DNA of 64,000 bases from a bacterium (GTDB lineage: Bacteria; Patescibacteriota; Microgenomatia; JAMCZE01). Below the pieces are notes generated by a model. That model saw only the letters and a list, made by a program, of their open reading frames with translations. It did not search any database and had not been told where the DNA came from. The number at the start of each line of letters is the position of its first letter. Position 1 is the stretch's first letter. Of this stretch, positions 2,774 through 55,852 are shown piece by piece. The stretch is from positions 44,370 to 108,369 of the forward strand of contig JAKBJL010000001.1 of NCBI GenBank assembly GCA_021836035.1. Reading direction: 5' to 3'. The translations under genes and the position numbers were made by a program.

Positions 2774-3439
2774 CTACTTTTTCGGCCAAATAGCAGCTGC
2801 CGGACGATAAATCTTGGTTAAGGGATGGTTTGCACAGTCATGCGGCCGGGCCGGGCATATTTGCCTTCCGTACTCAATTAGCCAATAGGTCCATTTAAAC
2901 CAAAGCTCTTGCGGGACAATTTGCATCAGATCTTGCTCAATTTTTGCGGGATCGCCGGAATCTGTAAGATCAAATTTTAAGGATAAGCGCCGGACATGGG
3001 TATCGACCGCAATGCCCTCGACTACCCCGTAAGCGTTTCCCAAAACCACGTTGGCCGTTTTGCGGGCAACTCCGGGGAGAGTGAGCATCTCGGCCATGGT
3101 CCGCGGCAGTTCTCCGCCATACTTTTCCTTTAGTGCCTTTGCCGCCCCCAAAATGCTCTTAGCTTTGTTATTAAAGAAGCCCGTGGATTTAATATCCTCA
3201 GAGAATAGCTTCAAATCAGCTCTAACATAATCATCCAGGGTCGGATATTTTCTAAAAAGCCCTTTCGTAACCTCGTTGACCTTTTTATCGGTGCATTGCG
3301 CGGAGAGGATAACTGCGACCAGAAGCTCCCAATTATTGCCATAATTTAAAACGATTTTAGCGTCGGGAAAAAGTTTCTGTAGGATCGGGGTCATCTTCCC
3401 GATCCGTTCCTTCCTCGCCCGAAGCTTTCCGGGTGTCAT
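2774..3439 (-). CDS. nth: endonuclease III (Nth, HhH-GPD DNA glycosylase) with degenerate Fe-S motif
   Basis: Aligns to E. coli Nth over LLVAVILSAQCTD, LPGVARKTANVV and VDTHV. C-terminus reads C-X6-C-X2-H-X5-Y instead of the four-Cys motif. Start chosen at MTPGKLRARKERIG, because the ORF-track N-terminus overlaps tRNA-Ala. Confidence 0.8.
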   Translation of the reverse strand: MTPGKLRARKERIGKMTPILQKLFPDAKIVLNYGNNWELLVAVILSAQCTDKKVNEVTKGLFRKYPTLDDYVRADLKLFSEDIKSTGFFNNKAKSILGAAKALKEKYGGELPRTMAEMLTLPGVARKTANVVLGNAYGVVEGIAVDTHVRRLSLKFDLTDSGDPAKIEQDLMQIVPQELWFKWTYWLIEYGRQICPARPHDCANHPLTKIYRPAAAIWPKK

Positions 3440-3531
3440 TATTGGTATAATAACAGAGAAATCTTCCCGGTCCCATAGGCAAAGGGCGGATTTACCTACC
3501 GAAGCTTTCGCGAAGGTAGGCCGCGTTGGCC

Positions 3532-3602
3532 GGGCCGTTAGCACAGCGGTAATGCACCGCATTCGCATTGCGGGGACGGGGGTTCGATTCCCCCACGGTC
3601 CA
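3532..3602 (+). tRNA. tRNA-Ala (anticodon CGC)
   Basis: Manual fold gives a 7-bp acceptor stem with the G3:U70 Ala identity pair and D-loop GG. Anticodon stem CCGCA/TGCGG with loop TTCGCAT. T-arm GGGGG-TTCGATT-CCCCC, discriminator A. CCA is not encoded. Confidence 0.75.
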
Positions 3603-3621
3603 CAGTTCAATTTTCAAACCC

Positions 3622-3780
3622 CCAAAAAGGGTAACAACCGCTGGGGGCCCAAAAGCGTTGCGCGGCCCCTCTCTTTTAAATAACCAGAGGAAAAATAGAA
3701 AAAGGGTGAGCTCCTGAAGCGATACCGTCGTCATAGCGAAGCCAGCGTTTTGGGAATGGGTGGCTGGGACCCTTGCCTTG
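3622..3780 (+). repeat. MITE-like intergenic repeat, copy A (divergent subtype shared with copy C)
   Basis: Begins AAAAGGGTAACAACCGCTGGGGGCCC and ends GGGTGGCTGGGACCCTTGCC. Positions 3644-3774 are nearly identical to 7567-7696. Confidence 0.7.
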
Positions 3781-3783
3781 ATA

Positions 3784-4860
3784 TTACTTCAGAAACAAGA
3801 GCGGATTGACGGCGCTACCCCCGCTGTAGACGGTGAAATGAAGGTGCGGACCGGTAGATCTCCCCGTAGAACCCATCTTCCCCAGAATTTCCCCGCGTCC
3901 CAGGTTATCACCGATATTGACAAAGATTTGAGAAAGATGCCCGTAGAGCGTCCGTAATCCGTTGCCATGGTCAATAATCACATGATAGCCATAATCATGA
4001 TTGTCATAAAGAACCGTCACCACCCGCCCGGCGTCCGCGGCTCGTACCGGCGTACCGATGCCATTGGCAATATCCGTGCCGTTATGGTACCAGGAAAAAT
4101 ATTGGGTGATAATCCCGTTGGTCGGCCAGACTAAAGTTCCGCTGCCGTGGGCAAAAAGGCCTACACTGGGGGTTGAACGTACCGGAGGCGGGGCAGCCAC
4201 TTCCGGAGGAACACCTCCCGGAATAACCAAATCCTGACCGGCTGCCAGGGTAAACTTCTCATCATCAACAAAATTGTTATACGGCCAGTCAATAATCGGC
4301 TGGGAGCTGGGCAAGCCGTATTTTTTCGCCAGGGAATAGATCGTGTCCCCGCTCTTAACCTTAAGGATAACCCCGGAAACCGGCGGAATTTTAATCTTGT
4401 CCCCCGGATGCAGATTATTAATGGAAATGTCAGAATTTAAATATTTGATCGAGTCCACATCAACCCCGAATTTTTTGGCAATAGCGGAAAGTGTATCCCC
4501 GCCCCGGACTTCGTATTCTTCCACATCCCGGCGGGGCTTCTCTGACTCAATGGTGGTAGTCGAGATGGTGGCGGCCGTCACCGTATTCAGTACTTCGGAG
4601 GGCGAAGCCGTCTCGCTACCGCCCGTTGCTTTGGTCGGGTAACGGTTATATAGAATCGGGGCCAAAACCATCGCCAAAACCAGAAGCGAGACCATCCCTA
4701 AATGCAAAAAGGGACGCTGATAAGCGCCCCTTCTGACGATTAATTTGGCTACCAAACGACCTTTACCGGCGTCAAATAAACTCCCCAGGATTCGCCCCTT
4801 CTTCGTAGCGTACCAGCCGATAAACCTCAGGCACTCCGCAATTTCCATATTAACCGACAT
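3784..4860 (-). CDS. LysM-domain M23 family metallopeptidase (peptidoglycan endopeptidase)
   Basis: Two LysM repeats (GDTLSAIAKKFGV, GDTIYSLAKKYGL). M23 motifs HNGTDIA and GSTGRSTGPHLHF. N-terminal TM anchor. Confidence 0.85.
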   Translation of the reverse strand: MSVNMEIAECLRFIGWYATKKGRILGSLFDAGKGRLVAKLIVRRGAYQRPFLHLGMVSLLVLAMVLAPILYNRYPTKATGGSETASPSEVLNTVTAATISTTTIESEKPRRDVEEYEVRGGDTLSAIAKKFGVDVDSIKYLNSDISINNLHPGDKIKIPPVSGVILKVKSGDTIYSLAKKYGLPSSQPIIDWPYNNFVDDEKFTLAAGQDLVIPGGVPPEVAAPPPVRSTPSVGLFAHGSGTLVWPTNGIITQYFSWYHNGTDIANGIGTPVRAADAGRVVTVLYDNHDYGYHVIIDHGNGLRTLYGHLSQIFVNIGDNLGRGEILGKMGSTGRSTGPHLHFTVYSGGSAVNPLLFLK

Positions 4861-4871
4861 GTGGTGCTTAG

Positions 4872-4900
4872 ACTTTACCCTGTGAAAATATCGCTGTCAA
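4872..4900 (-). promoter_or_regulatory. sigma70-like promoter for the M23 peptidase gene (TTGACA-17 nt-TAAAGT), near-leaderless
   Basis: Minus strand reads TTGACAGCGATATTTTCACAGGGTAAAGT. The -10 ends about 12 nt before the ATG at 4860. Confidence 0.4.
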
Positions 4901-4952
4901 GGAAGTCACAATAGCATCAAAAGGCATCATTTATCGATTGCGAATCTTTGGT

Positions 4953-5125
4953 TTAAAAAGGGTGGTAACTTACGGTGCGTGGCTTCTGGCAACACAAAAG
5001 CGTACGAACCCTCTCCCTTTTTGTTAAATCTGTTAAATTTACCAAGATATAGATACAAGAAACAAGACGCCAGGGGTGTATGGGAGTTAGCTTATCGGGG
5101 CTGCGGGTTGCCAGGGTCCTTGCCT
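4953..5125 (+). repeat. MITE-like intergenic repeat, copy B
   Basis: TTTAAAAAGGGTGGTAACTTACGG ... ACACAAAAGCGTACGAACCC ... GGGGCTGCGGGTTGCCAGGGTCC. Flanked by TTTAAAAA on the left and TTAAAAA on the right. Confidence 0.7.
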
Positions 5126-5133
5126 TAAAAAGG

Positions 5134-6561
5134 CTATCCGACTTTTAAACTTTTGAGGAAATCGGCATTGCTTTCTGTCTTCTCTAGCCGCCCGATCAGA
5201 GCTTCTGTCCGCTCTCCTTCCGTAAGCATGTCCAGCATGCGGACTAAAAGTTTGCGGGTAGCCATCTCTTCTTCCGTAAAAAGCCGCTCATCGTTTCTGG
5301 TACCGCTCTGGGCAACATCGATTGCCGGGTAAATCCTCCGCTCGGCCAGTTTCCGATCCAGGTGCAATTCCATATTGCCTGTGCCCTTGAATTCCTCATA
5401 AATTAAATCATCCATCCGGGAGTCGGTACTTACTAAAGCGGTGCCGATAATCGTCAAGCTGCCGCCGTCTTCCACACACCGGGCCGCGCCCAGGAACCTC
5501 TTAGCCGGATAAAGCGCCGTCGGATCAAATCCGCCGGAAAGGGTCCGCCCCGAAGAAGGCATAGCCAGGTTATAAGCCCGGGCAAGACGGGTAATCGAGT
5601 CCAACAGCATGACCACGTTTCTCCCGATCTCCACCAGGCGTTTAGCTCTTTCTATAGCGACTTCTGCCGCCCGGATTTGGGTTTGCGGCGGATCATCAAA
5701 ATTGGAAGCAATTACTTCGGCCTTTGTGCTCCGGCTGATATCCGTGACTTCCTCGGGTCTTTCCCCCACCAAAGCGATAATCAGGTGATAATCAGGATAA
5801 TTGGTAGTTATCGCGTTTGCGATCTCTTTTAGGAGCCAGGTCTTACCCGCTTTGGGTGGCGAAACAATCATCCCCCGTTGCCCGCGGCCGATCGGGGCTA
5901 TCAGATCAATAATACGAGTGCTAAGTGGTGTTTTTCCCGTCTCCAGGCGCAATTGCTTATCGGGGTAGATCGGCACCAGCTCGTCAAACCAGGGACGGGT
6001 TAAGGCCTGATCCGCGTCCACTCCGTTAACCTTATCAACACGCAGCAATCCGTAATATCTTTCCGTCTCTTTTGGGGCTCTTCCCAACCCCAAGACAAAA
6101 TCGCCGGGGCGCAAACTAAAGCGCCGGATCTGCGAACTACTGATATAAACATCCCGCTCCGAGGGCACGAATTTTGGCCGCAAAAAGCCGTGTCCTTCCG
6201 GCTGGATATCCAATACCCCGGAAAGTTCCATCGTCGGGACTCCGGCTTCGATATCGTTAAGCGGCCGGCTATAAACTTGCCCCGGGCCCGCGGAAGGACC
6301 TTGCCTTGGACTTGCTCCGGTTTGATCGGGGCTTGCCGAAGGAGCTTGTCCTGAGCCCACCGAAGGAATTGGGGCTTCAGCTTGCGCTAACGGCCTTAAC
6401 GGTTCTGCCGGAGCGACGGTTGCTGAATTGGGATTGGCAGCGGGAGTACCAACCAGGTCCTGAACACTAACCGGACCGCCGCTTCTCCCCGAAAGACGGG
6501 AAGGACGGCGGCTGGTGCCTGTTCGGCTACTTCTGAAACTACCTGTGTATTTTAGAGGCAT
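5134..6561 (-). CDS. rho: transcription termination factor Rho
   Basis: Low-complexity N-terminal extension, RNA-binding region (GVLDIQPEGHGFLR), Walker A GQRGMIVSPPKAGKT, and a conserved C-terminal ATPase. Confidence 0.9.
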   Translation of the reverse strand: MPLKYTGSFRSSRTGTSRRPSRLSGRSGGPVSVQDLVGTPAANPNSATVAPAEPLRPLAQAEAPIPSVGSGQAPSASPDQTGASPRQGPSAGPGQVYSRPLNDIEAGVPTMELSGVLDIQPEGHGFLRPKFVPSERDVYISSSQIRRFSLRPGDFVLGLGRAPKETERYYGLLRVDKVNGVDADQALTRPWFDELVPIYPDKQLRLETGKTPLSTRIIDLIAPIGRGQRGMIVSPPKAGKTWLLKEIANAITTNYPDYHLIIALVGERPEEVTDISRSTKAEVIASNFDDPPQTQIRAAEVAIERAKRLVEIGRNVVMLLDSITRLARAYNLAMPSSGRTLSGGFDPTALYPAKRFLGAARCVEDGGSLTIIGTALVSTDSRMDDLIYEEFKGTGNMELHLDRKLAERRIYPAIDVAQSGTRNDERLFTEEEMATRKLLVRMLDMLTEGERTEALIGRLEKTESNADFLKSLKVG

Positions 6562-6860
6562 ACCATTACTTTATGGGCTGGAAAATTCGTGAATAGATTC
6601 AAAAATTGGGGAAACCTCTTGTGAGAAACCAACTATATCTTATCCCAATCCCGTCTGTTGTCAAGTATGAACCCTGTCTCTATAGTTTTATGGAGATCCG
6701 GAAGCCTGCCCTACTCCCGGAACTCCATAAAGCTATCGAGATTCCACGGTTCTGACAATATTTTTTCACGCGCCTCTTGACAGGCGTGATCTATTCTGTT
6801 ACCACTATTGTTAGGTTATTGGTTTTGTCCTTTACTGCCTAAAGGTCAAAATCGGACCAA

Positions 6861-6908
6861 AAGCATCACTTTTCGAGTTCAGGCTGCGGAAGTGATGCTT
6901 TTCTTTTG
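6861..6908. terminator. 11-bp stem hairpin (AAGCATCACTT...AAGTGATGCTT) followed by TTCTTTT; strand assignment ambiguous
   Basis: Read directly. Lies in the long intergenic region upstream of rho, with no + strand gene upstream. Confidence 0.3.
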
Positions 6909-7125
6909 ATCCTAATAATATTTTCACCTAACCTACTAATTCCCTAAACCGTTGTCGTTGAAATAATATCTCTTCCGTTATCGGCGATAGCTTTCATAAC
7001 CTGGTGGCTGAATGAGGAGGTCCCCGTTTGGTTTTTCCCGACGGCAAGTCTTCTGCCGCTGTAGGTTTTTAATCTTCTGAGCATTTTCTTCCAAATATTA
7101 GCACGGTATGACATAGATATATATA

Positions 7126-7353
7126 CTACTTTATAATGCTACCCGCTTTGATAGATACCGCTGCCAGAGCTAGTACCGCCCCGCTAGCGATATCCTGGTT
7201 CCCGTTAACAAAAAGCAAATCGTTAATAGCCAGGGCAGCCAAAACTGTTCCGCCGGTAAATAACAAATATTTCAAAGACATTTTGTCGTGCTTTGTTTTT
7301 ACCTCGTCTGGCAATGTCATCCATCTTGATATTTCTGGTGCTGCGGCAGTCAT
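7126..7353 (-). CDS. small hypothetical membrane protein (75 aa, 2 predicted TM)
   Basis: Two hydrophobic helices. TTGACA-type promoter-like sequence upstream on the minus strand. An overlapping + ORF has no such support. Confidence 0.35.
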   Translation of the reverse strand: MTAAAPEISRWMTLPDEVKTKHDKMSLKYLLFTGGTVLAALAINDLLFVNGNQDIASGAVLALAAVSIKAGSIIK

Positions 7354-7549
7354 ATTTAGGCTTCTATATTAGCTATAACACCAGAGCCACTTCTTGTCAA
7401 GTCCGATAGTAAATATCATCCTGTATTATTATATATCCGATAGTTATTATAAAGAGGAGAAGGGCATAATAACGCCCAATTTCTAATATCAAGTTCCTAA
7501 TTTCTAATTGTGGACAAGTTGGGGATATACTTCTCTCTTTAGTTTTAAG

Positions 7550-7700
7550 GGGTTAACAGCCGCCGGGGGCCCAAAAGCGTTGCGCGGCCCCTCTCTTTTA
7601 AATAACCAGAGGAAAAATAGAAAAAGGGTGAGCTCCTGAAGCGATACCGTCGTCATAGCGAAGCCAGCGTTTTGGGAATGGGTGGCTGGGACCCTTAAAA
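7550..7700 (+). repeat. MITE-like intergenic repeat, copy C (near-identical to copy A)
   Basis: 7567-7696 matches 3644-3774 almost base for base. Confidence 0.7.
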
Positions 7701-7717
7701 TAAAATAGGGAGTTTAA

Positions 7718-9079
7718 CTATAATTTAAAACGGTTAAGGGAAGAGAGGTTTTCGGGAGAAATAATATTGTTTAACTTCAAAGCTTTCGCTTCCTTGAGGC
7801 GCTTCTCTAACGAGTTGACCCGGCGGACATTGCCCAACAGATCCAGCTCCCCGATCGCGACCGTTTTGGCCGGTAAAGCTTTATCGCGGAAGCTGGAAAG
7901 GACAGCGAGAGCTACCGGAAGATCCACCGCCGGTTCTTCGATTTTAATGCCTCCGGCGACATTAAGATAAATATCCTCTTTATACAAAGGCAGGGAAAGC
8001 CGTTTTTGTAATACCGCGACAATCATCTGCAGCCTCTGATAGTCGATACCGTTGCCGACGCGTCTAGGGGCCGGTAAGGTGGTATTGGTTGTCAAAGCCT
8101 GGATTTCTACCAGCATCGGCCTGGTTCCTTCCATAGCCACGGTTAAGCAGCTTCCCGGTTTCGTTCCGTGTGCCTCGGTAACGAATCCCTGTAAATCAGT
8201 AGCGGGCCGCAGCCCGCTGTCGCTCATCTCAAATACACCCACCTCGTCCGTCGGTCCGAAACGATTCTTGGTTGCCCGGATCAAGCGGAGATTTTGAAAC
8301 CTCTCCCCCTCCAAATTTAAGACGGTATCCACGGCGTGTTCCAATACTTTCGGCCCGGCGATGGTACCCTCTTTTGTCACATGCCCTACCAGGAAAAGCG
8401 GTACCCCGTATGGTTTGGTAGCCATAATCAGCCTGGAAGCCGTTTCCCGTACCTGGCCGACTGAACCGGCGCCTCCGGAAAGGTCTCCTGTCGTCATAGT
8501 TTGGATCGAATCCACAATTACCAACGGTCCAACCCCGTCTTTATTTTTTCCTTGTCCTTGCACCTGTTCTTGAATTTGTTCCGCTACGCGGTCCGCGTCC
8601 GTTTCTTCTAAAACTAAAATTTGTCCGCTTTTTATCCCCAACCTTTCGGCCCTGATTTTTATTTGCCCGGCGCTTTCTTCCCCGGCGACATAAAGGACGG
8701 TTCCTTCCCTGCCGTTACCCCAATGGCTGGCCAGTTCCAAAAGAAGGGTGCTTTTCCCGATGCCCGGTTCCCCGGCTAAAAGCACCGCCATTCCGGGGAC
8801 AATTCCCCCGCCCAAGGCGCGGTCCAACTCCGTAATCCCCGTCTCTGCCCGAGTCATTTTCTTTGCCTCGACATCCGCAAGTTTTATTATTCTCCCGCTA
8901 CCGCCGGTTCGTCTGTTTCGAGCTTTGAGCTTCGAGCTTTGAGTTTCTACCATCGTTTCCACCAAACTACTCCACGCCCCGCAATTCGGGCATTTACCCA
9001 GATAAGAAGGGCTGACATAGCCGCATTGCTGGCAGACAAAATCAGAGGAAGCTTTCATTCCAAGCGTATTATAGTTCAA
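7718..9079 (-). CDS. radA: DNA repair protein RadA/Sms
   Basis: N-terminal C4 zinc ribbon (CQQCGY...CPNCGAW), Walker A GEPGIGKST, KNRFG motif, and a Lon-protease-like C-terminal domain. Confidence 0.9.
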   Translation of the reverse strand: MNYNTLGMKASSDFVCQQCGYVSPSYLGKCPNCGAWSSLVETMVETQSSKLKARNRRTGGSGRIIKLADVEAKKMTRAETGITELDRALGGGIVPGMAVLLAGEPGIGKSTLLLELASHWGNGREGTVLYVAGEESAGQIKIRAERLGIKSGQILVLEETDADRVAEQIQEQVQGQGKNKDGVGPLVIVDSIQTMTTGDLSGGAGSVGQVRETASRLIMATKPYGVPLFLVGHVTKEGTIAGPKVLEHAVDTVLNLEGERFQNLRLIRATKNRFGPTDEVGVFEMSDSGLRPATDLQGFVTEAHGTKPGSCLTVAMEGTRPMLVEIQALTTNTTLPAPRRVGNGIDYQRLQMIVAVLQKRLSLPLYKEDIYLNVAGGIKIEEPAVDLPVALAVLSSFRDKALPAKTVAIGELDLLGNVRRVNSLEKRLKEAKALKLNNIISPENLSSLNRFKL

Positions 9080-16209: not shown

Positions 16210-16304
16210 TACTAGCAATAAATGCCGAGAAATGGCTGGAAAATAAATAGAATAATTTACGCGAATTAAAAACGAATTCACACGAACACTTTGATTTTAA
16301 AAAG

Positions 16305-16450
16305 GGTGGTAACCAGCGGGGAGCCCCATTAGGCGTATGAGCCCCCTCTCCATTCGCAAGAGTAGAAAGACTTCAACTAAAAAGGAAAGTGACTAAACCA
16401 GTCGTGTGGGCTAAATAGCTTGGTTGGGACCGCTGATTGCCGGGGCTCCT
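16305..16450 (+). repeat. MITE-like intergenic repeat, copy D
   Basis: TTTTAAAAAGGGTGGTAACCAGCGGGG ... GGGACCGCTGATTGCCGGGGCTCC. TTAAAA on both flanks. Confidence 0.65.
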
Positions 16451-16460
16451 AAATTAAAAA

Positions 16461-22784: not shown

Positions 22785-23513
22785 ATGAGGGTTTTACTTT
22801 ACGGCCGTTTTGGCATACACCCGGGGGAGGTTGAGGAACTCATTAGGGTCCACGGGCTGGAAATAATTACTCCTCCGGTTCCTCCCGACTCGCCCGGGGT
22901 AGCTCCCGATGTCGTCGTCACTTACGGCGGAGACGGGACCTTATTGGGTTCCGAGCGCGATTATCCGGGAATTCCCAAATTACCCCTGCGGAACAGCCAA
23001 ATTTGCCATCTCTGTTCAGCCCTGCCAAACGAAAGAATGCTGGAATTGTTGGCCCAAAACAAATTACATACCAGGTATTTGATGAAACTAGAGGCTGTAA
23101 CCGGCAAACAAAAAATAACCGCCCTAAATGACATTATCCTTGCCCACAAGTTCCCCAATACCGCCATTCGCTTTCGCCTTGCTTCTCCTGACCCGCTGCC
23201 CCGCTACCACGCTGCTCCGACTGACCTTATCGGCGATGGTCTCGTTATTGCTACCCCCTTCGGCAGCACCGGCTATTTTTACAGTATTACCCATAAAACC
23301 TTTTCCGGGGGGCTGGCTTTGGCTTTCAATAACCTCCACAATTCCCGGCAAAAAATGCAACTGTTCCCCGAAACGAAAACCGTTTCTATTTCCCTAACCC
23401 GCGGTCCGGCCGTCCTGGCGGCCGATAACGATCCCAACCTGCTGGATCTTCCCGAATCCGCCGAAATCCAAATAAAAAAATCGAAACAGGTAGCAAAAAT
23501 ACTTACCCCTTAA
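22785..23513 (+). CDS. nadK: NAD kinase
   Basis: GGDGTLL motif and an NAD-kinase C-terminal beta domain. Start taken at MRVLLYGRF. Confidence 0.8.
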   Translation: MRVLLYGRFGIHPGEVEELIRVHGLEIITPPVPPDSPGVAPDVVVTYGGDGTLLGSERDYPGIPKLPLRNSQICHLCSALPNERMLELLAQNKLHTRYLMKLEAVTGKQKITALNDIILAHKFPNTAIRFRLASPDPLPRYHAAPTDLIGDGLVIATPFGSTGYFYSITHKTFSGGLALAFNNLHNSRQKMQLFPETKTVSISLTRGPAVLAADNDPNLLDLPESAEIQIKKSKQVAKILTP

Positions 23514-23514
23514 T

Positions 23515-23672
23515 TTTAGAAAGGGTGCCAACCACCGAGAATCCCAAAAACACATGCGTATCCCCCTCTTTTAAATAACAAAGGGGAAAGAGAATAGAAT
23601 AAAGAAAAACTTTTAAAAGAATTGTCATGGTGGCTAACCGGCTTTCGGGGGTGGGTAGCTGGCGGGATCCTT
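23515..23672 (+). repeat. MITE-like intergenic repeat, copy E (divergent)
   Basis: TTTTAGAAAGGGTGCCAACC ... GGTAGCTGGCGGGATCC, flanked by TTGAATTAAAA. Confidence 0.6.
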
Positions 23673-23688
23673 GAATTAAAATACGAAA

Positions 23689-29380: not shown

Positions 29381-29580
29381 ACAGCGGTTAGTATACCTTA
29401 GTTTTAACCGGGGTGACACCCGACAGGAGCCCATAAAAAATGTCTCCGGGCATCTCTCTCTAAATAGGTTTACATAAATTAACTTTTGAAAAAGATTCTA
29501 AAAATTGATTGGCTGTTATGGCGAGGAGGGTTTTGGGGGCTATTGGGTGGTATGACCCGAATTATAAATTATGATTTTAA

Positions 29581-31506
29581 TTATTTTTCCGCTATCGCCA
29601 GTGCAACTTTGGGGTGGCCCATGATTTTTTCAAACTCTTCCCCTTCTAATGTTTCCCTGGCGATGAGCGCCTCCGCTACTTTGTCCAGAAGCTTCTTATT
29701 CTTTTTAAGAATATCCGTAGCTAGCTGCATACCCTCATCTAACAGCCGTTTTATCTCCTGGTCAATCCGGCCCGACATATCCTCGGAAATTTTCTGCGGC
29801 TCCTGGTAAAAGCGCCCCATAAAAGAATCCAGATGGTCGCCGAAATTGACCGGTCCCAAATTGGACATCCCGAATTCCGTCACCATTTCCCGGGCAATGG
29901 AAGTCGCGTTTTGGATATCGGCAACCGCCCCGGTTGTAACATCATTAAAGATTATTTGCTCCGCCACCCTGCCCCCCATCATGGCGGCAATTTGCTCTAA
30001 AAGATGTGATTTGGTCTCATGCAGGCGGTCCGCCTCGGGCGGATTAAAAGTTTGTCCCAAAGTCATCGCCCGGCTGACAATGCTTACCCGGTGTACGGGA
30101 TCCAAATGCGGCAATTCATGGATCACAACCGCATGCCCGGCCTCATGGTAAGCGGTCATCTTGCGGTCCAAATCGGACTGCAGCCGTTTCTTTTCCGGCC
30201 CCAACTTCACCTTGGTAGCCGCTTCCTCAATATCGATGGGATCAATGCTTGTCTTGCCTAACCGCGCGGCGAGAATTGCCGCTTCGTTGAGCATATTTTC
30301 TAAATCCGCACCGGAAAAACCGACAGTCCGCTTGGCAACCTTATCCCAATTTACCTCCGGGGTAAAAGGCTTACCGCGCATATGAATCTTTAAAATAGCC
30401 AGACGCCCCTCTTTGTCCGGCAAGTCAAGACTTACCCTCCGATCAAAACGCCCCGGACGGATCAAGGCCGGATCCAGGACGTCCGGGCGATTTGTAGCCG
30501 CCATGACAATCACGTTTTCGTTGGGAGCAAAGCCGTCCATTTCTACGAGGATTTGGTTTAGTGTCTGCTCCCGCTCGTCATGCCCGCCGACCAAACCCAT
30601 GCCCCGCTGCCGGCCGATCGCATCAATCTCATCAATAAAAATAATTGCCGGGGCGGCTTTTTTTGCCTGGGCAAAAAGATCCCGGACCCGGGAGGCACCG
30701 ACACCAACCAGCATTTCCATAAACTCGCTGCCCGCCATGGAGAAAAACGGGACCCCAGCTTCCCCGGCTACTGCCTTGGCAAGCAAAGTTTTTCCCGTTC
30801 CGGCCGGGCCGATCAATAAGACTCCTTTAGGCGTGCGGGCCCCGAGCAGCTGGTATTTACGGGGGCTCTTGAGAAAATCGACGACTTCCGTAAGTTCCTG
30901 CTTTGCTTCGTCCACCCCGGCGACATCGGAAAAAGTCACTTTCGGTTGGTCTTTTGTGTAGGGTTTAGCCCGTGAGCTGCCGAAAGACATAATGGAATCC
31001 TGGGCTCCCCGCGCCTGTCGGAATACCCAGAAGAAAAATACTCCCATAAGCACTAAAGGCAAAATATTGGACAGGATATTTATCCAATTGTTTGATAGTG
31101 AGGTATCCTGAACGGTTATTTTCGTACTGTCAGGATTAATCCCGGCCGCTTCGAGCGTCCGGATAAAGGATTCGTCGCTTTCTTTGCGGGAAACCGCCGT
31201 CTGGCCGTTTTTATACTTAATCGTCAGGGTATTATCAGCAACGGAAACCGAATCAACCTTCTGATCCTTGATGTCCTGTAAAACTGTCGAAAGCGGCTTA
31301 TTCTCCACGCTGGCCGGAGGCTTGACAAAGGAAGCAAAGATCGTTAAGGCGACAAAGGCAATAAAGAGGTAAAAAAGAAAATCCTTGAAAGAAAAATGGA
31401 ACCGCAGCTCCATCTTCTTTATCGGTTTCTTCCCGTTACCCTTGCCGTTGCTATTACCCCCCGTATTGCTTCCTCTCCCCAGTATTTTTGGTATGGATAA
31501 TTTCAT
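29581..31506 (-). CDS. ftsH: ATP-dependent zinc metalloprotease FtsH
   Basis: Walker [12 protein letters not shown] region, HEAGHA zinc site. Gly/Asn-rich low-complexity N-terminal tail. ATG at 31506 preferred over the TTG at 31533. Confidence 0.9.
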
Positions 31507-31516
31507 ATACCTTAAT

Positions 31517-31665
31517 TTTAAAAAGGGTGACAATTAGCGCGGCACCCTAAAAACGTACGTACTCCCTCCCTCTTCGCTAAATAAAACAATTCTCTTAAGG
31601 AAAAACAAACGGGTTGGTTGTATGGGCGAGTCGGCTTATTGGGACTGCGAGCTACCAGGACCCTT
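31517..31665 (+). repeat. MITE-like intergenic repeat, copy F (starts about 10 nt from the ftsH ATG)
   Basis: CTTAATTTTAAAAAGGGTGACAATTAGCGCGG ... GGGACTGCGAGCTACCAGGACCC. Confidence 0.65.
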
Positions 31666-31668
31666 AAC

Positions 31669-32016
31669 TCACCTTACCACCGAACCAGTTACTACATCCT
31701 CATCGAAATTATACAGGACTGCTTTCTCGTCTGAGGCGACCGCCAGAACCATCCCCGCGCTCTCGTATTCTTTCTCTCCGATCTTAAACCTTTTCGGTGC
31801 CAAGTTTACCACAAATGCCAACTTTCTGCCGGCCAACTTTTCCGGTGGATACCAAGGCTTTATCCCCGCACAAATGGTTCTTTTTCCGAGTTCCACACCA
31901 AAGTCCACTACCATCCTGACCAATTTATCGCTGCCCTCAACAGCCCCGCTCTCCACTACCTCCCCGACCCGTAAATCCAGTTTAGAAAAATCCGCGTAAT
32001 CAATTTGTGGTTTCAT
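31669..32016 (-). CDS. free-standing tRNA-binding domain protein (CsaA/Trbp111/EMAP-like OB fold)
   Basis: DLRVGEVVE...KL....VDFG....R.I..GI motif of the MetRS C-terminal/CsaA family. Overlaps the trpS stop by 17 nt. Confidence 0.75.
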   Translation of the reverse strand: MKPQIDYADFSKLDLRVGEVVESGAVEGSDKLVRMVVDFGVELGKRTICAGIKPWYPPEKLAGRKLAFVVNLAPKRFKIGEKEYESAGMVLAVASDEKAVLYNFDEDVVTGSVVR

Positions 32017-37715: not shown

Positions 37716-37787
37716 GCCAAGGTAACTCAGTGGTAGAGTGCCGCCCTCATAAAGCGGTTGTCGGGAGTCCGATTCTCCCCCTTGGCA
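37716..37787 (+). tRNA. tRNA-Met/Ile2 (anticodon CAU), elongator type
   Basis: Acceptor GCCAAGG/CCTTGGC, D-arm ACTC-AGTGGTA-GAGT, anticodon loop CTCATAA, T-arm GGGAG-TCCGATT-CTCCC, discriminator A. TATAAT lies 9 nt upstream. Confidence 0.8.
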
Positions 37788-38132
37788 CTAAAAAATAAGG
37801 TTTAGCCACTTTTGCCAGTTGGGAATATTTATCGGCTTGGCTTCCGGGGTTGCCGCTAAAAGTTCCGGGGGGATAATAACGATATCCTCCCCTTCTTTAA
37901 CCCAATTAAGTTTATCCCGGGCCTGTTCTTCGATAAACTGGGGCGTTTGCACTTTGGCCGCTTCCTCCTTTAGCTTTTCATTTTCCGCCGCTAATTTATC
38001 TACCTCCGCCTGGGCATCGGTTACCTTTTTCCCCGCGCCCAAGAGGCCGATGGTCGCCTGGACTGTTGCGACAATAAAAAATAACCCCAAAATGATGACC
38101 AAAAGACGAACCCGTCGGTGTCCCATAAGCAA
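37788..38132 (-). CDS. ftsB: septum formation initiator family protein (FtsB/DivIC-like)
   Basis: N-terminal TM then coiled coil (DAQAEVDKLAAENEKLKEEAAKV). Length 114 aa. Confidence 0.7.
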   Translation of the reverse strand: MLMGHRRVRLLVIILGLFFIVATVQATIGLLGAGKKVTDAQAEVDKLAAENEKLKEEAAKVQTPQFIEEQARDKLNWVKEGEDIVIIPPELLAATPEAKPINIPNWQKWLNLIF

Positions 38133-38226
38133 CTACTATGTACCCCTAGACCCTTTACATCTTTATCTCCCCCTGCTATTATAGGGGCCTAGAATTGCAC
38201 CTGCGCTCTCTCAGGCTACAAGCTTT

Positions 38227-39072
38227 ATGCACGACTGGCAGAAAAAATTTCTCGAATACTTAAAATCAAAATCCCGGGCCACGGCTACCGTCATCGCCTA
38301 CGGTAAAGATATCGGTCAGCTCTTAGAGTACTTGGAACAGCAGGGAAAGTCAAACCTGGCGGAAATTACGACTGCCGATTTAAACGGTTTTTTGGGGAAA
38401 CTGGCCAAAGAAAACTACACTCCGAAATCGATCAGCCGCAAAATCAATTCCCTGAAAACTTTTTTCCGCTTTTTGGCAGCCGAGAAAGTAATTGCCGATA
38501 ACCCCGCCGCCGGCATCTCTCATCCAAAGTTCGAGACCAAACCCCCGCGGATTCTCTCCCCCCTGGAATACCGGGCGCTCCGCGACGCTTGCCGCGATGA
38601 CTTTAGAATTGCCGCCGTGGTAGAACTTTTGCTCCAAACCGGCATGCGCATCGGAGAATTAGCCGCCCTAGAGCTAGATAGCGTCAACGAACACGAACTG
38701 AAAGTCCCCCCGATTGAAGGGCACCCGGAAAGAACCGTTCCGTTAAATAAAGCCGCCAAGGGTTCGCTCGATCGCTACCTCTCTATCCGCCCCAGGGTAA
38801 AATCACCCGCCCTTTTTATTACTAAAACCGGCCGGCCGCTGCTTATTAGAAACATCCGCACGGCGATTGACCGCTACTTCCGCATCGCCGGGATCAAAGA
38901 AGCCAAAGTCAACGATCTGCGGCACACCTTTATCGCCCACCACCTGGCCGCCGGCGCTTCCCCGGTTCTGGTTTCCCGCCTGGTCGGACATAAAAGAATA
39001 GCCACGACGGAAAAATATCTGGAATTTATTAAAGACATGCCCGCGGAGAAGATTAAACTGGAAGAGCTCTAA
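38227..39072 (+). CDS. tyrosine site-specific recombinase, XerC/XerD family
   Basis: N-terminal SAM-like core-binding domain. Catalytic R..(K)..HxxR..H..Y region: DLRHTFIAHHL and GHKRIATTEKYL. Confidence 0.85.
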   Translation: MHDWQKKFLEYLKSKSRATATVIAYGKDIGQLLEYLEQQGKSNLAEITTADLNGFLGKLAKENYTPKSISRKINSLKTFFRFLAAEKVIADNPAAGISHPKFETKPPRILSPLEYRALRDACRDDFRIAAVVELLLQTGMRIGELAALELDSVNEHELKVPPIEGHPERTVPLNKAAKGSLDRYLSIRPRVKSPALFITKTGRPLLIRNIRTAIDRYFRIAGIKEAKVNDLRHTFIAHHLAAGASPVLVSRLVGHKRIATTEKYLEFIKDMPAEKIKLEEL

Positions 39073-39391
39073 AACTACGATAGGCTCAATCTCCAAATCC
39101 CCAACCGCGATTCCCCATAACTTAATTATTTCGTTTTTTTTCTCGTATTGCTGGCTATGGCTTCGGTTTCCTTTCCTTCCCGGGTTAACGGCCCCCTTTG
39201 TTCCTGACGACCCGGGTTAGTAGCGTAACCAATTGTTAACCAATGGTTAGTTTCTTTCGTCTCTTTTTTCACTATGGTATCGCAATTAATAAATGCCCGA
39301 CGGGTTGAGCAACCATCCGCTTCTTGGTCATTAGCGCCGACTGAAGTTGCCGACCCACTTGCCTGATCAATAATATTTGGTTTTGGAGGGT

Positions 39392-39420
39392 TTTAGGAAG
39401 AATCTTTAGGAAATTTAGGA
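39392..39420 (+). repeat. three direct repeats of TTTAGGA within 29 bp downstream of the recombinase gene
   Basis: Read directly at 39392-98, 39405-11 and 39414-20. Confidence 0.3.
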
Positions 39421-39532
39421 TACTAACGACGGAATTGAAGGTCCCTTTGGGAACCTTGTACTCTTTATTCGTGCGCAAACACAAATTCCCGGCTGGCGAT
39501 CCGATTGGCCGTTGGGTTATTGGGATTTGAAT

Positions 39533-39793
39533 TTATTTAATTTTCTCTAGGGCGTCTCCCTTCTCCACCGCCTGATCCACTTTAAGCGCGACATCCTGCC
39601 CTGGTTTGGCTTTTTCTACCGGTCTATGGTCAATCTGCATGGAGGTCACTTCCTGGGTAAATTCGCTGCCGTGACCGGCAATTTTTACCGTATCGCCTAC
39701 CGTCAAAGGAGAAGCCAGCTTTAAAGCTGCCACCCCGATCCGATCAAAATAGTGGGTCACCGTTCCTACCGCTTTGCTTTTTACCACAATCAT
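39533..39793 (-). CDS. small beta-barrel protein (about 86 aa), EF-Tu domain 2-like
   Basis: Start taken at MIVVKSKAVG. The longer track ORF overlaps the + M14 gene. Confidence 0.4.
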   Translation of the reverse strand: MIVVKSKAVGTVTHYFDRIGVAALKLASPLTVGDTVKIAGHGSEFTQEVTSMQIDHRPVEKAKPGQDVALKVDQAVEKGDALEKIK

Positions 39794-39922
39794 CACCCCC
39801 GTTCTGTTTATTTCTTTAATTATAATACCCGTCTTGCAAATCTTTTCTAATTTACCTAAACTTGGCTGTCTGCCCAGCAGAATTAGCATCAAATTCCCCC
39901 TGCCGAATTTGATTATTCCCAT

Positions 39923-40963
39923 ATGGAAATACCCAAGGAATTTTATATTTCGGAAGAAATTGCTACCTATCGCGACGACGAAAAACGCCCTGCCGAATGC
40001 CGGATACCCGTCCAAAAGCTTTTTAGCGCTTATGGAAACCTTGTGGAAAGTGGAAATTGGGAAGCAGGAACGGTTGCCCTGCAACCCATAAATTACCGTG
40101 AAGAAGACTCCCCCCGCCTGCCTATACCCTATCTTAAAACCATCCGTAATGGTCCCGCCTTTTGGTCGCTGGCCGGCATTCACGGTGAGGAACCGGCCGG
40201 GCCAAACGCCCTGGTCCGTAACATGGATATCCTGGCGGAATTAGGAAATCATATCCCCGTTGTCGTTTTTCCCCTCTGTAATCCTAGCGGTTATGTACGA
40301 AACTGGCGCTATTTCGACGAGTTCCGTGACCATAACATCGGAAACAGCGTCGGTGACAGTGATCATTTGCTTTTAAGCACAAAAGGCCTTAACCAGCCGC
40401 GCCGGGCGGAGCCAAGCAGCCCTTATGCCCTGGCCCTGGGTGAAAAAATGCTCGAACTCGCCCGGGAATATCCGCCCCTCATGGTCATTGACCACCATGA
40501 GGATGAGGACACCAGCCGCAAGAGAAGGCGGACAACTTTTTATATTTATGCTCATGGCCATTGGGGTTATGATGACTGTGTCGGAAAAAAGATTGTGGAA
40601 ATTCTTCTGCAGCACGGGATGAAGATAACGCTTAGCGGATATACCCGCTTCGGGGAAAAAATAAAAAACGGGATTATCGCCAATGCCGACGATGGCTCTA
40701 TTGACGATTTCTTGGCGGCGGAGAAAATCTGGCACCTGGGGCAAATTGAAGCGGGGCCAAACGTCGCCTCCGTTGTAGTTGTAGAAAATCCCGCGGTGAA
40801 AATAAAACTGACCAGCAGGATTGCTGCCCACGGAGAAATTGTCCGCAATTATCAGGAACTGCTAAAAATCAGACTGGCCCAGGAACAGGAGAGCTGCCCG
40901 GACTTACCCGAAACTATTTCTCCGTTAGGGATTAAAAAGCGCCCGGCTTCAACCGCTACATAA
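39923..40963 (+). CDS. M14-family zinc carboxypeptidase / succinylglutamate desuccinylase-aspartoacylase-like
   Basis: Zinc-binding motif SLAGIHGEEPAG (HxxE) and downstream NPSG. Confidence 0.7.
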   Translation: MEIPKEFYISEEIATYRDDEKRPAECRIPVQKLFSAYGNLVESGNWEAGTVALQPINYREEDSPRLPIPYLKTIRNGPAFWSLAGIHGEEPAGPNALVRNMDILAELGNHIPVVVFPLCNPSGYVRNWRYFDEFRDHNIGNSVGDSDHLLLSTKGLNQPRRAEPSSPYALALGEKMLELAREYPPLMVIDHHEDEDTSRKRRRTTFYIYAHGHWGYDDCVGKKIVEILLQHGMKITLSGYTRFGEKIKNGIIANADDGSIDDFLAAEKIWHLGQIEAGPNVASVVVVENPAVKIKLTSRIAAHGEIVRNYQELLKIRLAQEQESCPDLPETISPLGIKKRPASTAT

Positions 40964-41061
40964 TCCGTAAATATTAGCAATTTTTGCTAGGAGTGTGACC
41001 GTTCGGCGATTTGGGCTTACATCCTTCGATTCTCTTCGCTCGCTCAGGATCTCGGCGGAAA

Positions 41062-43437
41062 TTATAGGTGAGAACGGGCTGATATTTCCGCCTCGACCGT
41101 CCGGACATCCCGGCCGTATTTCAGGGCCGAAAGTTCTTTGATCATGCCCGCGACGCGGGGATTACGCGACTTATTGATCCGCTCAAAGTCATGGTTGATT
41201 TCGATACTGAACGGCGGCAGGGGTTCGTTATCAACAACCGTCTTAACATAGGCATTGAAAGCTTCCACCTTCAAAAGGTCCTGCTCGTTAAAGGTGGGGG
41301 TATATTCATGGGCCAAAAACTGAGCATCGTTCACCCCGGTCCGAAAAGTAATTTTCGTCCCGACATTGCCGAAGACCGCGTTTCTGACCTCCTCCTCCAT
41401 TTGGGAAATAAACTGGTTGGCGACCGTCAAATTCAGGCGGTATTTGCGAGCCTCGGAAAGAATGGTGGCAAAATCCGGGGTAGCAAAATTCTGAAACTCG
41501 TCAACGTAAAGATAAAAGTCCCGCCGCTGCTCCATGGGAACATTGGTCCGGCTCATGGCGGCGGTTAAAATTTTCGGAATCAACAAGAGCCCCAGGAAGT
41601 TGCTGTTCTCTTCCCCGATAAGGCCCTTGGCCAGGTTAATAATGAGAATTTTGCCTTCGTCCATTACCTGCCGGAAATCAAAAGAGCTTTTGGACTGCCC
41701 GATCATATTGCGCATCAGTTTGTTCGTCGTAAAGCGACCGAATTTAGAGACAATATAATCTAGGACTTCGCTTTTGTGGAACTCGGCAGTCTGGGCGATT
41801 TGGTCGGTCCAATAACGACGGATAATCGGGTCAGAAACTTTGGGCAATAATTCCTGGACATAGGTCGGATCGGTCAGCGCTCTTTGCACCTCGATAAAGG
41901 TTGTCCCCGGCTGGACCATAACCGTAAGCATCGCGTTTCTGATATTGTGTTCCAGACGGGGGCCCACGATACCGGTCTGATGGGGGTCATACAGTTTGTA
42001 AAACAGGCCGATAATCGAAGTGACGATATAATGCTTCTGCTCCTCGGTATAGGCCTCCATAATGTTTAAACCCATGGGCCGCGCGGTGTTGCTGGGATCA
42101 AAATAGATAACGTCTTCCGCTCTTTCGGGGGGCATCTGCTCCAAGATGGTTTCATAAGTATCGTGGGGATCAATAAAACAAACCCCCTTGCCGGCGCGGA
42201 TATCCTGCAAAATCATCTGGGACATAAGAAGCGATTTGCCGGTACCGGTCGCGCCGACGATATAGACATGTTGCCTCCGGTCGTCGTCGGAAATATAGAC
42301 CGGCCGCTCGTCCCCGCGGTAAACGGATTTCCCGAGATAAAGTCCGCTGCTGGGAATTCCCTGGGGAGCCGGCGCCCGCTTGGCATTAAGCCAATAAATA
42401 TGCGGGGTTTCGACAGCCTTATTGGGGAAATGAAAGAGGGTGGCCAGTTCTTCCGTCGTCAAAACACCCCCAAATTTCAGCATGGGCTGGTAACGGTAGA
42501 CGAAATCCGTCATGAAGTTACCTTGTACCCAGATCTTATCTTTGGTAAAGCCGTTAAGCTCCCCGTTAAATTGCTCAAAAGCTGCTTTAATGTTTCCTAA
42601 AATCATCTTGGCATCCGCCCGGGTTTTTGCCGAGACAACTATTCTTAACGAGAAATTAAAGCCCGGTTTGCCGGTTTTATTCTCGATAGTTTCCAAAGTT
42701 TTAGCGTCCACATTAAATTTAGCCTTTTCCGGATCGGCCTCATTCTTCTTGGTCCGGGAAATATATTTTTTGCCCAGGCTGCGCCACTTATTTTCGGCCG
42801 GGGAAATTAAAAGTTGGATTGCTGCCCCCTCCCCTTCCCCCAGCTTAGCCAGGGCTGAGGTAATCACGGATATGGGGTCAACCGCCAGGTCCTTATAGGT
42901 TTTAAGCGGGAAGTAATAGGAGGAGCGCAGCTTTAACGACAGATAGGCCACTTCCCCGTCTTCGGAAAAGATATTGTAGTCTTCCACCTGTTTGACAATA
43001 GCCCCGGGGTAAGTCCCGTGGATTTGTTTTTCAACCAGATCTTTGACCTGTTCGGAGCAGGAAATATAAAAACGGATGTTCTCGTGTTCCGCGACAATTT
43101 CCAAAGATAAATGTTCCTGGGGGGTTAAAAATGGCAACTTCCACATGGGGCCGCCCTTTTTCAAAGAGTAAAGGGAGGTAAAAAATTGCTCCATGGCGTC
43201 AATTTTTATTTCGTTTTCCCTGGGTACGGCTACCTGTAATAAAACAAAGTCCAGGGCATGCTCTTCGCGTTTACGCCACTTAATAAACTGATAAAACAGA
43301 TAAAGGAAAAGCGCTCCGGCGGCAACAAAAAGCAGCAAAACTACCAAAATGACGGCAAATTCTACCAAGAGGGCCTCGAAATTAGAGAAGAATTCGAAAC
43401 CGGGAGCGGCAGGATACATACTACAATGATAGCACAA
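41062..43437 (-). CDS. T4SS-type P-loop ATPase with N-terminal TM anchor (VirB4/VirD4-TraG-like, FtsK/HerA superfamily)
   Basis: One long hydrophobic N-terminal segment, Walker A VYIVGATGTGKS, Walker B FYLYVDEFQNF. 791 aa. Confidence 0.7.
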   Translation of the reverse strand: MCYHCSMYPAAPGFEFFSNFEALLVEFAVILVVLLLFVAAGALFLYLFYQFIKWRKREEHALDFVLLQVAVPRENEIKIDAMEQFFTSLYSLKKGGPMWKLPFLTPQEHLSLEIVAEHENIRFYISCSEQVKDLVEKQIHGTYPGAIVKQVEDYNIFSEDGEVAYLSLKLRSSYYFPLKTYKDLAVDPISVITSALAKLGEGEGAAIQLLISPAENKWRSLGKKYISRTKKNEADPEKAKFNVDAKTLETIENKTGKPGFNFSLRIVVSAKTRADAKMILGNIKAAFEQFNGELNGFTKDKIWVQGNFMTDFVYRYQPMLKFGGVLTTEELATLFHFPNKAVETPHIYWLNAKRAPAPQGIPSSGLYLGKSVYRGDERPVYISDDDRRQHVYIVGATGTGKSLLMSQMILQDIRAGKGVCFIDPHDTYETILEQMPPERAEDVIYFDPSNTARPMGLNIMEAYTEEQKHYIVTSIIGLFYKLYDPHQTGIVGPRLEHNIRNAMLTVMVQPGTTFIEVQRALTDPTYVQELLPKVSDPIIRRYWTDQIAQTAEFHKSEVLDYIVSKFGRFTTNKLMRNMIGQSKSSFDFRQVMDEGKILIINLAKGLIGEENSNFLGLLLIPKILTAAMSRTNVPMEQRRDFYLYVDEFQNFATPDFATILSEARKYRLNLTVANQFISQMEEEVRNAVFGNVGTKITFRTGVNDAQFLAHEYTPTFNEQDLLKVEAFNAYVKTVVDNEPLPPFSIEINHDFERINKSRNPRVAGMIKELSALKYGRDVRTVEAEISARSHL

Positions 43438-43484
43438 CAGTTGGATTTAATTTCTAATTTCTAATGGCTAATTCTTTTATATTT

Positions 43485-43646
43485 CTTTTAAAAGGGTGGT
43501 AACTCGCGGGGCGTTGTCTTTGACAACGCAAAAGCGTGCGAACCCCCACTTTTTTTGCAAGATAAAGTAAAAATCTATTTAAGAAGGGGGGGGCTAAGCC
43601 AGCCGCGCGGGTGAGTTGGTTTATGGGGGCCGCGGGCTACACCCCT
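43485..43646 (+). repeat. MITE-like intergenic repeat, copy G
   Basis: TTTTAAAAGGGTGGTAACTCGCGGGGCGTTGTCTTTGACAACGC ... GGGGGCCGCGGGCTACACCCC, then TAAATTAAGG. Confidence 0.65.
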
Positions 43647-43649
43647 AAA

Positions 43650-44150
43650 TTAAGGTAATTGTTTATCCCTAACTACTGACCCCCTGAAGAATTTGACGAG
43701 GTAACCGGCCTTAAGAAGTTCGTAAATAAACCACTCGGCGAGCCAGCGAAAAGATTTGGAAACGGGGGCTTTTTTGCCTTCCGCTAACTGATCGTCGGTT
43801 AAAACTTTTCCGCGGACGGCAAATTCCGGGATCGCATGGTGTATTGGCGTTTCTGCTACGGCCTGGGGTTTAATACCCATCTCCCTTGCCAAATCCTGCG
43901 GCACCCGCACTTCTCCGCTCTCCACCCGGTCAATACCCAACTCTTCCATTTCCTTCTCTGTTTCCAATTCGTGACCGTAGCTAAGCCAGTACTCATCGCC
44001 TTCCCTTTTAGCAATTTCGTCGGCAACTTTAAGATCCCCCATCTCGCCGACAGATTGGCCAACTTGCTCTTTTTGTAATTGCCCCGCTGAATTTGCGGTA
44101 GCCTTTTTAACAGGAGCGTCGTCTTGGATCGTTACTTTAATTTTACTCAT
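43650..44150 (-). CDS. hypothetical protein (166 aa)
   Basis: ORF immediately upstream of the T4SS-type ATPase. Confidence 0.45.
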   Translation of the reverse strand: MSKIKVTIQDDAPVKKATANSAGQLQKEQVGQSVGEMGDLKVADEIAKREGDEYWLSYGHELETEKEMEELGIDRVESGEVRVPQDLAREMGIKPQAVAETPIHHAIPEFAVRGKVLTDDQLAEGKKAPVSKSFRWLAEWFIYELLKAGYLVKFFRGSVVRDKQLP

Positions 44151-46234: not shown

Positions 46235-46264
46235 CAAGGCCAAGCCGCGATACTTTGATCTTAG

Positions 46265-55831: not shown

Positions 55832-55852
55832 TTAAATTATTTCCTTAGTTAT

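Follow-up and report, generated by a model that had tools for sequence, protein, structure and literature searches.

Lineage-specific gene-end palindromic repeats in a Patescibacteria genome and the probable gene conversion of an identical pair flanking rho

Gene conversion (concerted evolution) between dispersed repeats is established for rRNA operons, tuf genes and insertion sequence (IS) copies. Several classes of short bacterial repeats have been described as well. [quoted passage not shown] The Correia/NEMIS, ERIC and RUP repeats (100-200 bp) carry terminal inverted repeats which give the transcript a long hairpin, lie between genes in both orientations, vary in presence among lineages and are recognised hotspots of homologous recombination, with clear target duplications (e.g. 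TA) and often an identifiable parent IS (PMC10969869). REP/BIME sequences are GC-rich extragenic palindromes of 20-40 nt found at gene ends, usually in alternating clusters and associated with a RAYT gene, whose structure is conserved more than their sequence and for which roles in mRNA 3'-end protection or termination have been proposed (PMC2817692). Finally, the SPRITE repeats of S. pneumoniae are species-restricted dispersed sequences of less than 200 bp in which A-run/T-run termini surround a long stem with a U-rich tract behind it; they are enriched beside the 3' ends of coding sequences (CDS) and in convergent spacers, have neither an established target duplication nor matching IS ends, and have been proposed to be co-opted as terminators (PMC3049150). 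Here, these classes are compared with a family of short repeats from a bacterium of the Patescibacteria, found in 64,000 nt of contig JAKBJL010000001.1 (assembly GCA_021836035.1, positions 44,370 to 108,369; hereafter the window, to which coordinates refer unless another sequence is named). Two of the copies, A and C, flank the gene for transcription termination factor Rho and are identical over most of their length.

Exact-match extension and alignment showed that positions 3643-3774 (copy A) and 7565-7696 (copy C) coincide over 132 bp, both on the + strand and at an offset of 3922. The first-pass annotation of the window had proposed two essentially identical copies of about 130 bp on either side of a peptidase-rho-small-ORF block (ORF, open reading frame). 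The alignment it suggested as a check gave 0 mismatches over the 132 bp (100% identity), and the block between the copies indeed holds an M23/LysM peptidase gene, rho and two small ORFs; only its pairing of position 3644 with 7567 was one base off, which is immaterial. To the left, the similarity reaches 3629/7551 with three mismatches (3631, 3637 and 3642), giving 146 bp at 98%, and beyond these positions the resemblance falls to the loose level of the family, described below. To the right, the match ends abruptly after ...GGGACCCTT. The whole elements extend over approximately 3612-3785 (A; nhmmer hit 3623-3785) and 7536-7712 (C). The left (5') arm of A, AAAAAGGGTAACAACCGCT (3621-3642, + strand), is not homogenised with that of C, TTTAAGGGGTTAACAGCCGCC (7543-7564, + strand), from which it differs at the three mismatched positions and in its A-run; the right arm common to both copies finds a better pairing partner in C's left arm than in A's. 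The left terminus has a version of its own at each locus (AAAAAGGGTAAC in A, TTTAAGGGGTTAAC in C), and the two left arms, although distinct, are both of the family type.

The pair belongs to a larger family, as the designation of a "divergent subtype" in the first-pass annotation implied. Repeat finding and nhmmer profiles, applied to 77.7 kb of this one genome (the window plus 6.2 kb to its left and 7.5 kb to its right), delimited 11 elements of 162-185 bp with E-values of 1e-26 to 1e-37, and nhmmer detected no further copies in the two extensions. Because A and C are members of this family, their match is not a chance one. All 11 copies lie on the + strand (two-sided P ~0.001), with a density of about one copy per 6-7 kb, and together they make up 3% of the window. 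Pairwise identities range from 42 to 66%, with only two exceptions, A/C and the pair formed by F46 (46254-46415, + strand) and G55 (55843-56021, + strand), which are the only young pairs in the family. The closest relative of the A/C subtype is I23 (23508-23685), at 56-59% identity, with which A and C have CTCTTTTAAATAAC...AATAGAA in common.

The distribution of the differences within the two young pairs bears directly on their origin. All three A/C differences fall within the first 14 of the 146 nt and are followed by 132 matches, a pattern with P ~9e-4 under uniform placement. F46 and G55 form a comparable mosaic, in which the left arm is ~55% identical and the rest ~94% identical through to the right flank. 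Since the left arms at A and C are distinct, a full element of one and the same subtype was present at both loci before homogenisation took place, and gene conversion is favoured because the mismatches cluster in the left arm, whereas a fresh insertion should copy both ends. We therefore infer, from a single assembly, that A and C are resident members of a lineage-specific family of gene-end palindromes recently homogenised by gene conversion, a reading to which we assign a probability of about 0.6. In the mechanism proposed, two copies of the same subtype, each with a full element, would have resided 3.9 kb apart, and a recent non-reciprocal homologous recombination event would have overwritten everything to the right of 3643/7565 while sparing the left arm. 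A/C and F46/G55 would be explained equally well by polar copying in which the left arm is left untouched. As in the established cases of conversion between dispersed repeats, the homologous unit of the A/C pair contains a tract of perfect identity whose limit is sharp, and F46/G55 is a second pair with this kind of mosaic; the A/C pair differs from them in the very short extent of its homology, of 146 bp only.

Comparison with relatives addressed whether the elements are insertions. Rho homologues placed the host among the Patescibacteria/Microgenomates, with a Rho 80% identical in the nearest relative. In the relatives' loci (Rho 70-80% identical, and hence distant), the order radA - small ORFs - rho - peptidase - nth is kept, with tRNA-Ala between the peptidase gene and nth, and these syntenic loci lack A, C and the third copy of the region, B; indeed, nhmmer detected no member of the family in them. 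The empty site for A is found in L008, where the stop codon of the peptidase gene lies 1 nt from the convergent tRNA-Ala(CGC), the corresponding gap in the window being 180 nt and filled by A. For B, the rho-peptidase spacer of L008 measures 72 nt and consists of the promoter TTGACA-17-TAAAnT, conserved in all species. For C, the radA stop codon of L008 and L006 is followed by a TCCCCAAnTTGTCCACA box and the TTGACA promoter, at a place where the window has ~190 extra nt (C and its flanks). These clean empty sites at A, B and C show that the elements are insertions. They are placed, all in one orientation, after a gene's stop codon and ahead of whichever promoter or gene comes next. Segmental translocation of the 3.9-kb block, or its mobilisation as a composite transposon, was rejected, since the order radA-rho-peptidase-(tRNA-Ala)-nth is ancestral in relatives free of the repeats.

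Other differences were observed at the relatives' loci. In the closest relative (L004, 1560-1695), the start codon is separated from the conserved peptidase promoter by an additional ~120 nt, and this sequence, which nhmmer did not detect, ends in GTCACCCCTTTTTAAT, resembling the minus-strand end of the family. A different intergenic repeat, consisting of AATTTGnCn arrays with a 9-nt period, occupies several spacers of L006 (3209-3831, 11527-11717 and 16755-16810). The tRNA-Ala(CGC) gene beside the peptidase gene is inverted in L006 (8506-8577) with respect to the window (3532-3603) and L008 (12552-12623), and a strong hairpin precedes it there.

Beyond these loci, specific patterns for the A/C/I23 subtype and for the major subtype gave no match in the JGI metagenome collection, and neither did pattern scans for the family in the viral contig collection. 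The pattern CAAAARCGTN{1,2}CGN{2,3}CCCYNNNNYTTT, used on the genome collection, was too degenerate, returning at least 117 single random matches in unrelated taxa, and nhmmer found no family member among the matches listed. Each of the two spurious ORFs beginning within A and C (P0121 and P0122) is present on three contigs of NCBI/ENA, the longest of 360,735 bp; used as a protein query, the A/C ORF returned only the A and C ORFs, without a third copy of the subtype in public protein calls. The ORFs present in the elements are all non-conserved and run out into the flanks.

Absence from the orthologous sites of relatives is also what recent transposition would leave behind. Under this alternative, A or C would have arrived only recently, by cut-and-paste or copy-and-paste of an active MITE, with a transposase gene at another place in the genome acting in trans. 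Indeed, the first-pass annotation had called the elements MITEs and had offered very recent transposition or gene conversion as the cause of their identity. The small size (162-185 bp, without a transposase gene), the terminal inverted repeats and the occupied versus empty orthologous sites at A, B and C agree with the MITE label, but the elements are not AT-rich (40-52% GC, compared with 48.6% for the window) and neither a clear target duplication nor a partner transposase was found. Most copies are flanked on both sides by TTAA or TTAG, which could represent a YTAR- or TTAA-type target duplication and which we take to be linked to IS5-type targets. Nevertheless, TTAA is palindromic and continues the inverted repeat, so that no duplication can be demonstrated from it, and none was visible on comparing A with the empty site of L008 or C with those of L008 and L006. 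No transposase is annotated in the window, and no Y1 transposase or RAYT gene was seen in the ~78 kb annotated. A gene for an IS1595-family transposase does lie just to the left of window position 1 (L001, 15463-16308), but the ends of that IS1595 element are unrelated to those of the family and the 12-mer it has in common with one member, D31, is within chance expectation, so it was rejected as the parent. Recent transposition is further disfavoured by the mismatch pattern, with 3 of 14 left-arm positions differing and the next 132 nt perfect, by the presence at both sites of left arms of their own and of the family type, by the restriction of the subtype to two copies in public protein calls, and by the age of the rest of the family, at 42-66% identity. 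Altogether, it appears unlikely, and of the two causes originally offered it is conversion that the mismatch pattern favours.

A further alternative is that the two loci are merely similar, or one copy misplaced, and that their identity was produced by bubble-popping or polishing during assembly. GCA_027371575.1, one of the assemblies in which the region is found, is a short-read metagenome-assembled genome, and near-identical repeats can be collapsed by assemblers. However, the raw data branch where a genuine repeat predicts. The Logan contig L002 (run SRR13170412) corresponds exactly to 3745-7594 of the window and ends on both sides exactly 30 nt inside the exact repeat (k-1, with k=31); these break positions mean that the reads themselves hold the repeat in two contexts, as expected from a de Bruijn graph, and that the terminal 31-mers are truly common to both copies. 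In addition, three NCBI/ENA contigs carry both the A and C loci, each locus has unique flanks and stands in conserved synteny, and the M23 peptidase gene between the copies can also be found on two short Logan contigs and on DAHXMT010000002.1 (343 kb, GCA_027371575.1). Hence, the concern initially attached to the pair, that one copy might be an assembly artefact, was met by no obvious sign of one, and a misassembly is very unlikely, although bubble-popping of short reads could have masked a few true differences inside the repeat. For the identity of A and C, gene conversion thus ranks as the best explanation and whole-element transposition as the second, an assembly artefact being unlikely. 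Two other Logan contigs end in this region of the genome: L127 starts at 55972, inside G55, where F46 and G55 have exact 31-mers in common, and L003 ends at 6890, where there is no repeat and where low coverage or a variant is possible.

Read along the minus strand, the genes around the pair follow the order radA, C, a conserved box and promoter, a 75-aa ORF, a 56-aa ORF, a promoter, rho, B, a promoter, the M23 peptidase gene and A, after which comes tRNA-Ala(CGC) on the opposite strand (3532-3603, +), convergent with the peptidase gene. Between the stop codon of radA (7718-9079, -) and the beginning of copy C there are 21 nt. Downstream of C are the TCCCCAAnTTGTCCACA box (7509-7525), which in relatives directly adjoins the radA stop codon, and the conserved promoter-like box TTGACA-17-TATAGC (7372-7400, -), followed by the two small ORFs upstream of rho (6944-7353, -) and by rho itself (5134-6561, -). 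Copy B, of the major subtype (4946-5130, +), has the rho stop codon (5134) on one side and, on the other, the sigma-70-type promoter of the LysM/M23 peptidase gene (3784-4860, -), TTGACA-17-TAAAGT, located just downstream of B (4872-4900, -) and conserved in four relatives. B and C are therefore both placed between a stop codon and promoters conserved across species. Both promoters and the TCCCCAAnTTGTCCACA box are conserved in species whose Rho is only 70-80% identical.

The same arrangement recurs throughout the family. Ten of the 11 copies are located directly downstream of a stop codon; ten have a minus-strand gene on their right, and in nine of these the right end lies at most 9 nt from its stop codon or overlaps it. 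Convergent spacers harbour 4/11 copies and divergent spacers none (0/11). The right end of H16 (16290-16460, +), a copy flanked by convergent genes, touches a thioredoxin gene's stop codon (16461), I23 (+ strand) is also between convergent genes, and J29 (29396-29573, +) is downstream of the FtsH stop codon (29581). The stop codons of a 166-aa gene (43650-44150; stop at 43650-43652) and of the NAD kinase gene (23511-23513) are contained in the TTAA flank motifs of E43 (43482-43657, +) and I23, respectively, which fits insertion at TTAA sites that contain a stop codon. At the other end of the elements, the minus strand shows the left-end motif as TTAAGG or CTAAGG, placed 3-11 nt ahead of the FtsH and DeoC start codons (31506-31515 and 55831-55848). 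At its left end, D31 (31510-31677, +) is separated by 3 nt from what is probably the start codon of FtsH, and G55 fills the gap from the stop codon of the gene at 56023-56580 to the DeoC start codon (55831), so that, judging from these positions, the elements may supply Shine-Dalgarno sequences to both genes. The most degenerate copy, K61 (61692-61861, +), is the only one flanked by + strand genes. Taken together, the single orientation and the adjacency to stop codons point to a selected gene-end element or to a strand-specific mechanism.

The elements are imperfect palindromes of about 170 bp. Inverted repeats form both termini, with CCTTAATTTTAAAAAGGGTGGTAAC... at the left and ...GTTACCnGGACCCCAAATTAAGG at the right (in short form AAAGGGTGGTAAC...GTTACCnGGACCC), and between them lie asymmetric, conserved blocks, an AT-rich centre and, optionally, a small hairpin. 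In the terminal stem and the GGGG/CCCC helix, 83% of the cells are paired, compared with 38-54% in slid controls, and compensatory double changes were found at 11 pairs, versus 1-7 in the controls. For the 12 outermost pairs, measured over 10 copies, the paired fraction is 79-95%. Read on the minus strand, the sense strand of the genes, the closing stem frequently terminates in ...ACCC-UUUUU, and 5/11 copies have a UUUU(U) tract after it. In the region scanned for terminators (3300-8000), no canonical ones occur at these gene ends. These features suggest that the family, putatively derived from a MITE- or REP-like mobile repeat, could act at gene ends as a terminator-like or 3'-end-protecting hairpin and, at times, as the donor of a TTAAGG Shine-Dalgarno-like sequence. 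A role as an internal promoter for downstream genes was rejected, as neither a scan nor inspection revealed a convincing -35/-10 pair inside the elements. An integron attC identity was likewise rejected. Such sites have the RYYYAAC...GTTRRRY core and follow promoterless accessory cassettes beside an integrase gene (intI), in contrast with the present elements: the arms GGTAAC...GTTACC vary between copies, and the adjacent genes are housekeeping ones in conserved synteny and with conserved promoters of their own.

Several observations weigh against the interpretation of A and C as terminator-like gene-end palindromes homogenised by conversion. A good U-tract is present in only 5/11 copies, and a terminator scan of 3300-8000 called no terminator within A, B or C; instead of the short GC-rich hairpin with a loop of 3-8 nt and a U-run that defines a canonical intrinsic terminator, only the long outer stem precedes the UUUU(U) tract. 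Fold z-scores, on both strands, range from about +2 to -4, with most values from -1 to +1, so that most copies fold no better than shuffled sequence. The wobble-type mismatches show no strand asymmetry (51 vs 44), and with such symmetric wobbles a function at the RNA level is unproven and no specific strand of action is demonstrated. K61 keeps its + orientation beside + strand genes and GC skew has one sign over the whole window, so orientation may follow the replication strand (11/11) rather than gene direction (10/11). In addition, a conversion tract that reaches the right end of the homology requires right arms that were identical beforehand, and, from the assembly alone, conversion is indistinguishable from the homogenisation of near-identical copies by the assembler.

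The same data bear on the possibility that the elements are structured non-coding RNA genes, either independent or acting in cis as 3' or 5' untranslated regions, with A and C as a recent duplication held identical by selection. Compensatory covariation in three helices, the conserved asymmetric internal blocks, the single orientation of all copies and the one outlying fold stability (C, + strand, z = -2.9) are in agreement with it. By contrast, the poor folding of most copies and the symmetry of the wobble pairs speak against RNA genes, as does the failure to detect the family in relatives and in the JGI and viral collections. Rfam returned only tRNAs at the gathering score and nothing credible at relaxed E-values over A, B, C, E43 and F46, and no promoter travels with the element. 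Moreover, as the copies have diverged to 42-66% identity with many indels, selection cannot explain an identity of 132/132 in one pair only. This explanation is consequently regarded as very improbable, and conversion between resident copies is retained.

Among the described systems, the nearest likeness is to SPRITE, and it is one of function, not of homology, since the host phylum differs and no sequence relationship is shown. Both families are restricted to their host lineage, are shorter than 200 bp, have A-run/T-run termini with a long stem and a following U-rich tract, are enriched beside CDS 3' ends (10/11 copies after a stop codon here) and in convergent spacers (4/11, with 0 divergent), lack an established target duplication and matching IS ends, and are candidates for co-option as terminators. 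The family described here is longer and more complex, with an outer stem of ~12-25 bp, conserved internal blocks and the optional hairpin; it is also not AT-rich, has an absolute orientation bias in the sample (11/11) and a clear U-tract in 5/11 copies. With Correia/NEMIS, ERIC and RUP it has in common the size, the hairpin-forming terminal inverted repeats, the intergenic location, the lineage-variable presence and the susceptibility to homologous recombination, but its duplication is ambiguous, its orientation fixed and its copies old and diverged, with stems that covary instead of keeping their sequence. REP/BIME sequences resemble it in being gene-end palindromes conserved in structure more than in sequence, with the same proposed 3'-end roles, and strand-specific mobilisation of the REP/RAYT kind, through single-stranded DNA (ssDNA), could explain the orientation bias; however, the present elements are ~170 nt long, single and in one orientation. 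Overall, the family would appear to behave as terminator-like gene-end repeats rather than as a proven MITE. Within the literature library searched, no description of such repeats, or of MITEs, in Patescibacteria was retrieved.

Two other features of the window were recorded. The region 37716-43419 contains a tRNA-Met gene (37716-37788), a tyrosine recombinase gene (38227-39072, +) and a gene for a DUF87/TraG-like ATPase (41062-43419, -), and a mobile element may have integrated there next to the tRNA. Besides, the nucleotide sequences of two paralogues of PBP1A type (transglycosylase/transpeptidase), at 56648-58900 and ~61958-64000+, agree in blocks to 72-79%, with an offset that stays constant at 5738 bp.

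The identical pair has consequences for the rho locus itself. It had been proposed as a substrate for deleting or inverting the intervening genes, and the 132-bp tract does constitute a recombination substrate for deletion. Inversion has to be discarded, because A and C are direct repeats, between which recombination gives deletion, excision of a circle or tandem duplication. A deletion would remove a block of ~3.8-3.9 kb with rho, the peptidase gene, the small ORFs and element B, and would probably be counter-selected through the loss of rho; the block is nonetheless a plausible site of deletion or duplication polymorphism. In practical terms, the A/C repeats are breakpoints in short-read assembly, as L002 illustrates, and the break of L127 inside G55 is of the same kind.

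The homogenisation of dispersed palindromic repeats by recombination is a well-known phenomenon and part of ordinary repeat biology. The main interest of the present family resides in its strict orientation, its adjacency to stop codons and its recurrent one-sided homogenisation. In a more far-reaching scenario, which we consider quite doubtful, the family would be no decaying MITE but a structure-selected, orientation-locked gene-end module serving as the main terminator or 3'-end processing signal of a candidate phyla radiation (CPR) bacterium without canonical terminators, occasionally donating a Shine-Dalgarno-like sequence, and it would spread and stay uniform by one-sided copying that spares the same arm in both young pairs (A/C and F46/G55), which would hint at a polar, possibly ssDNA- or replication-linked copying that is undescribed for such repeats. 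What is documented here is a dense, lineage-specific and orientation-biased family of gene-end repeats in a streamlined Patescibacteria genome and, if its elements terminate transcripts or stabilise their 3' ends, it would provide insight into transcription punctuation in CPR bacteria.

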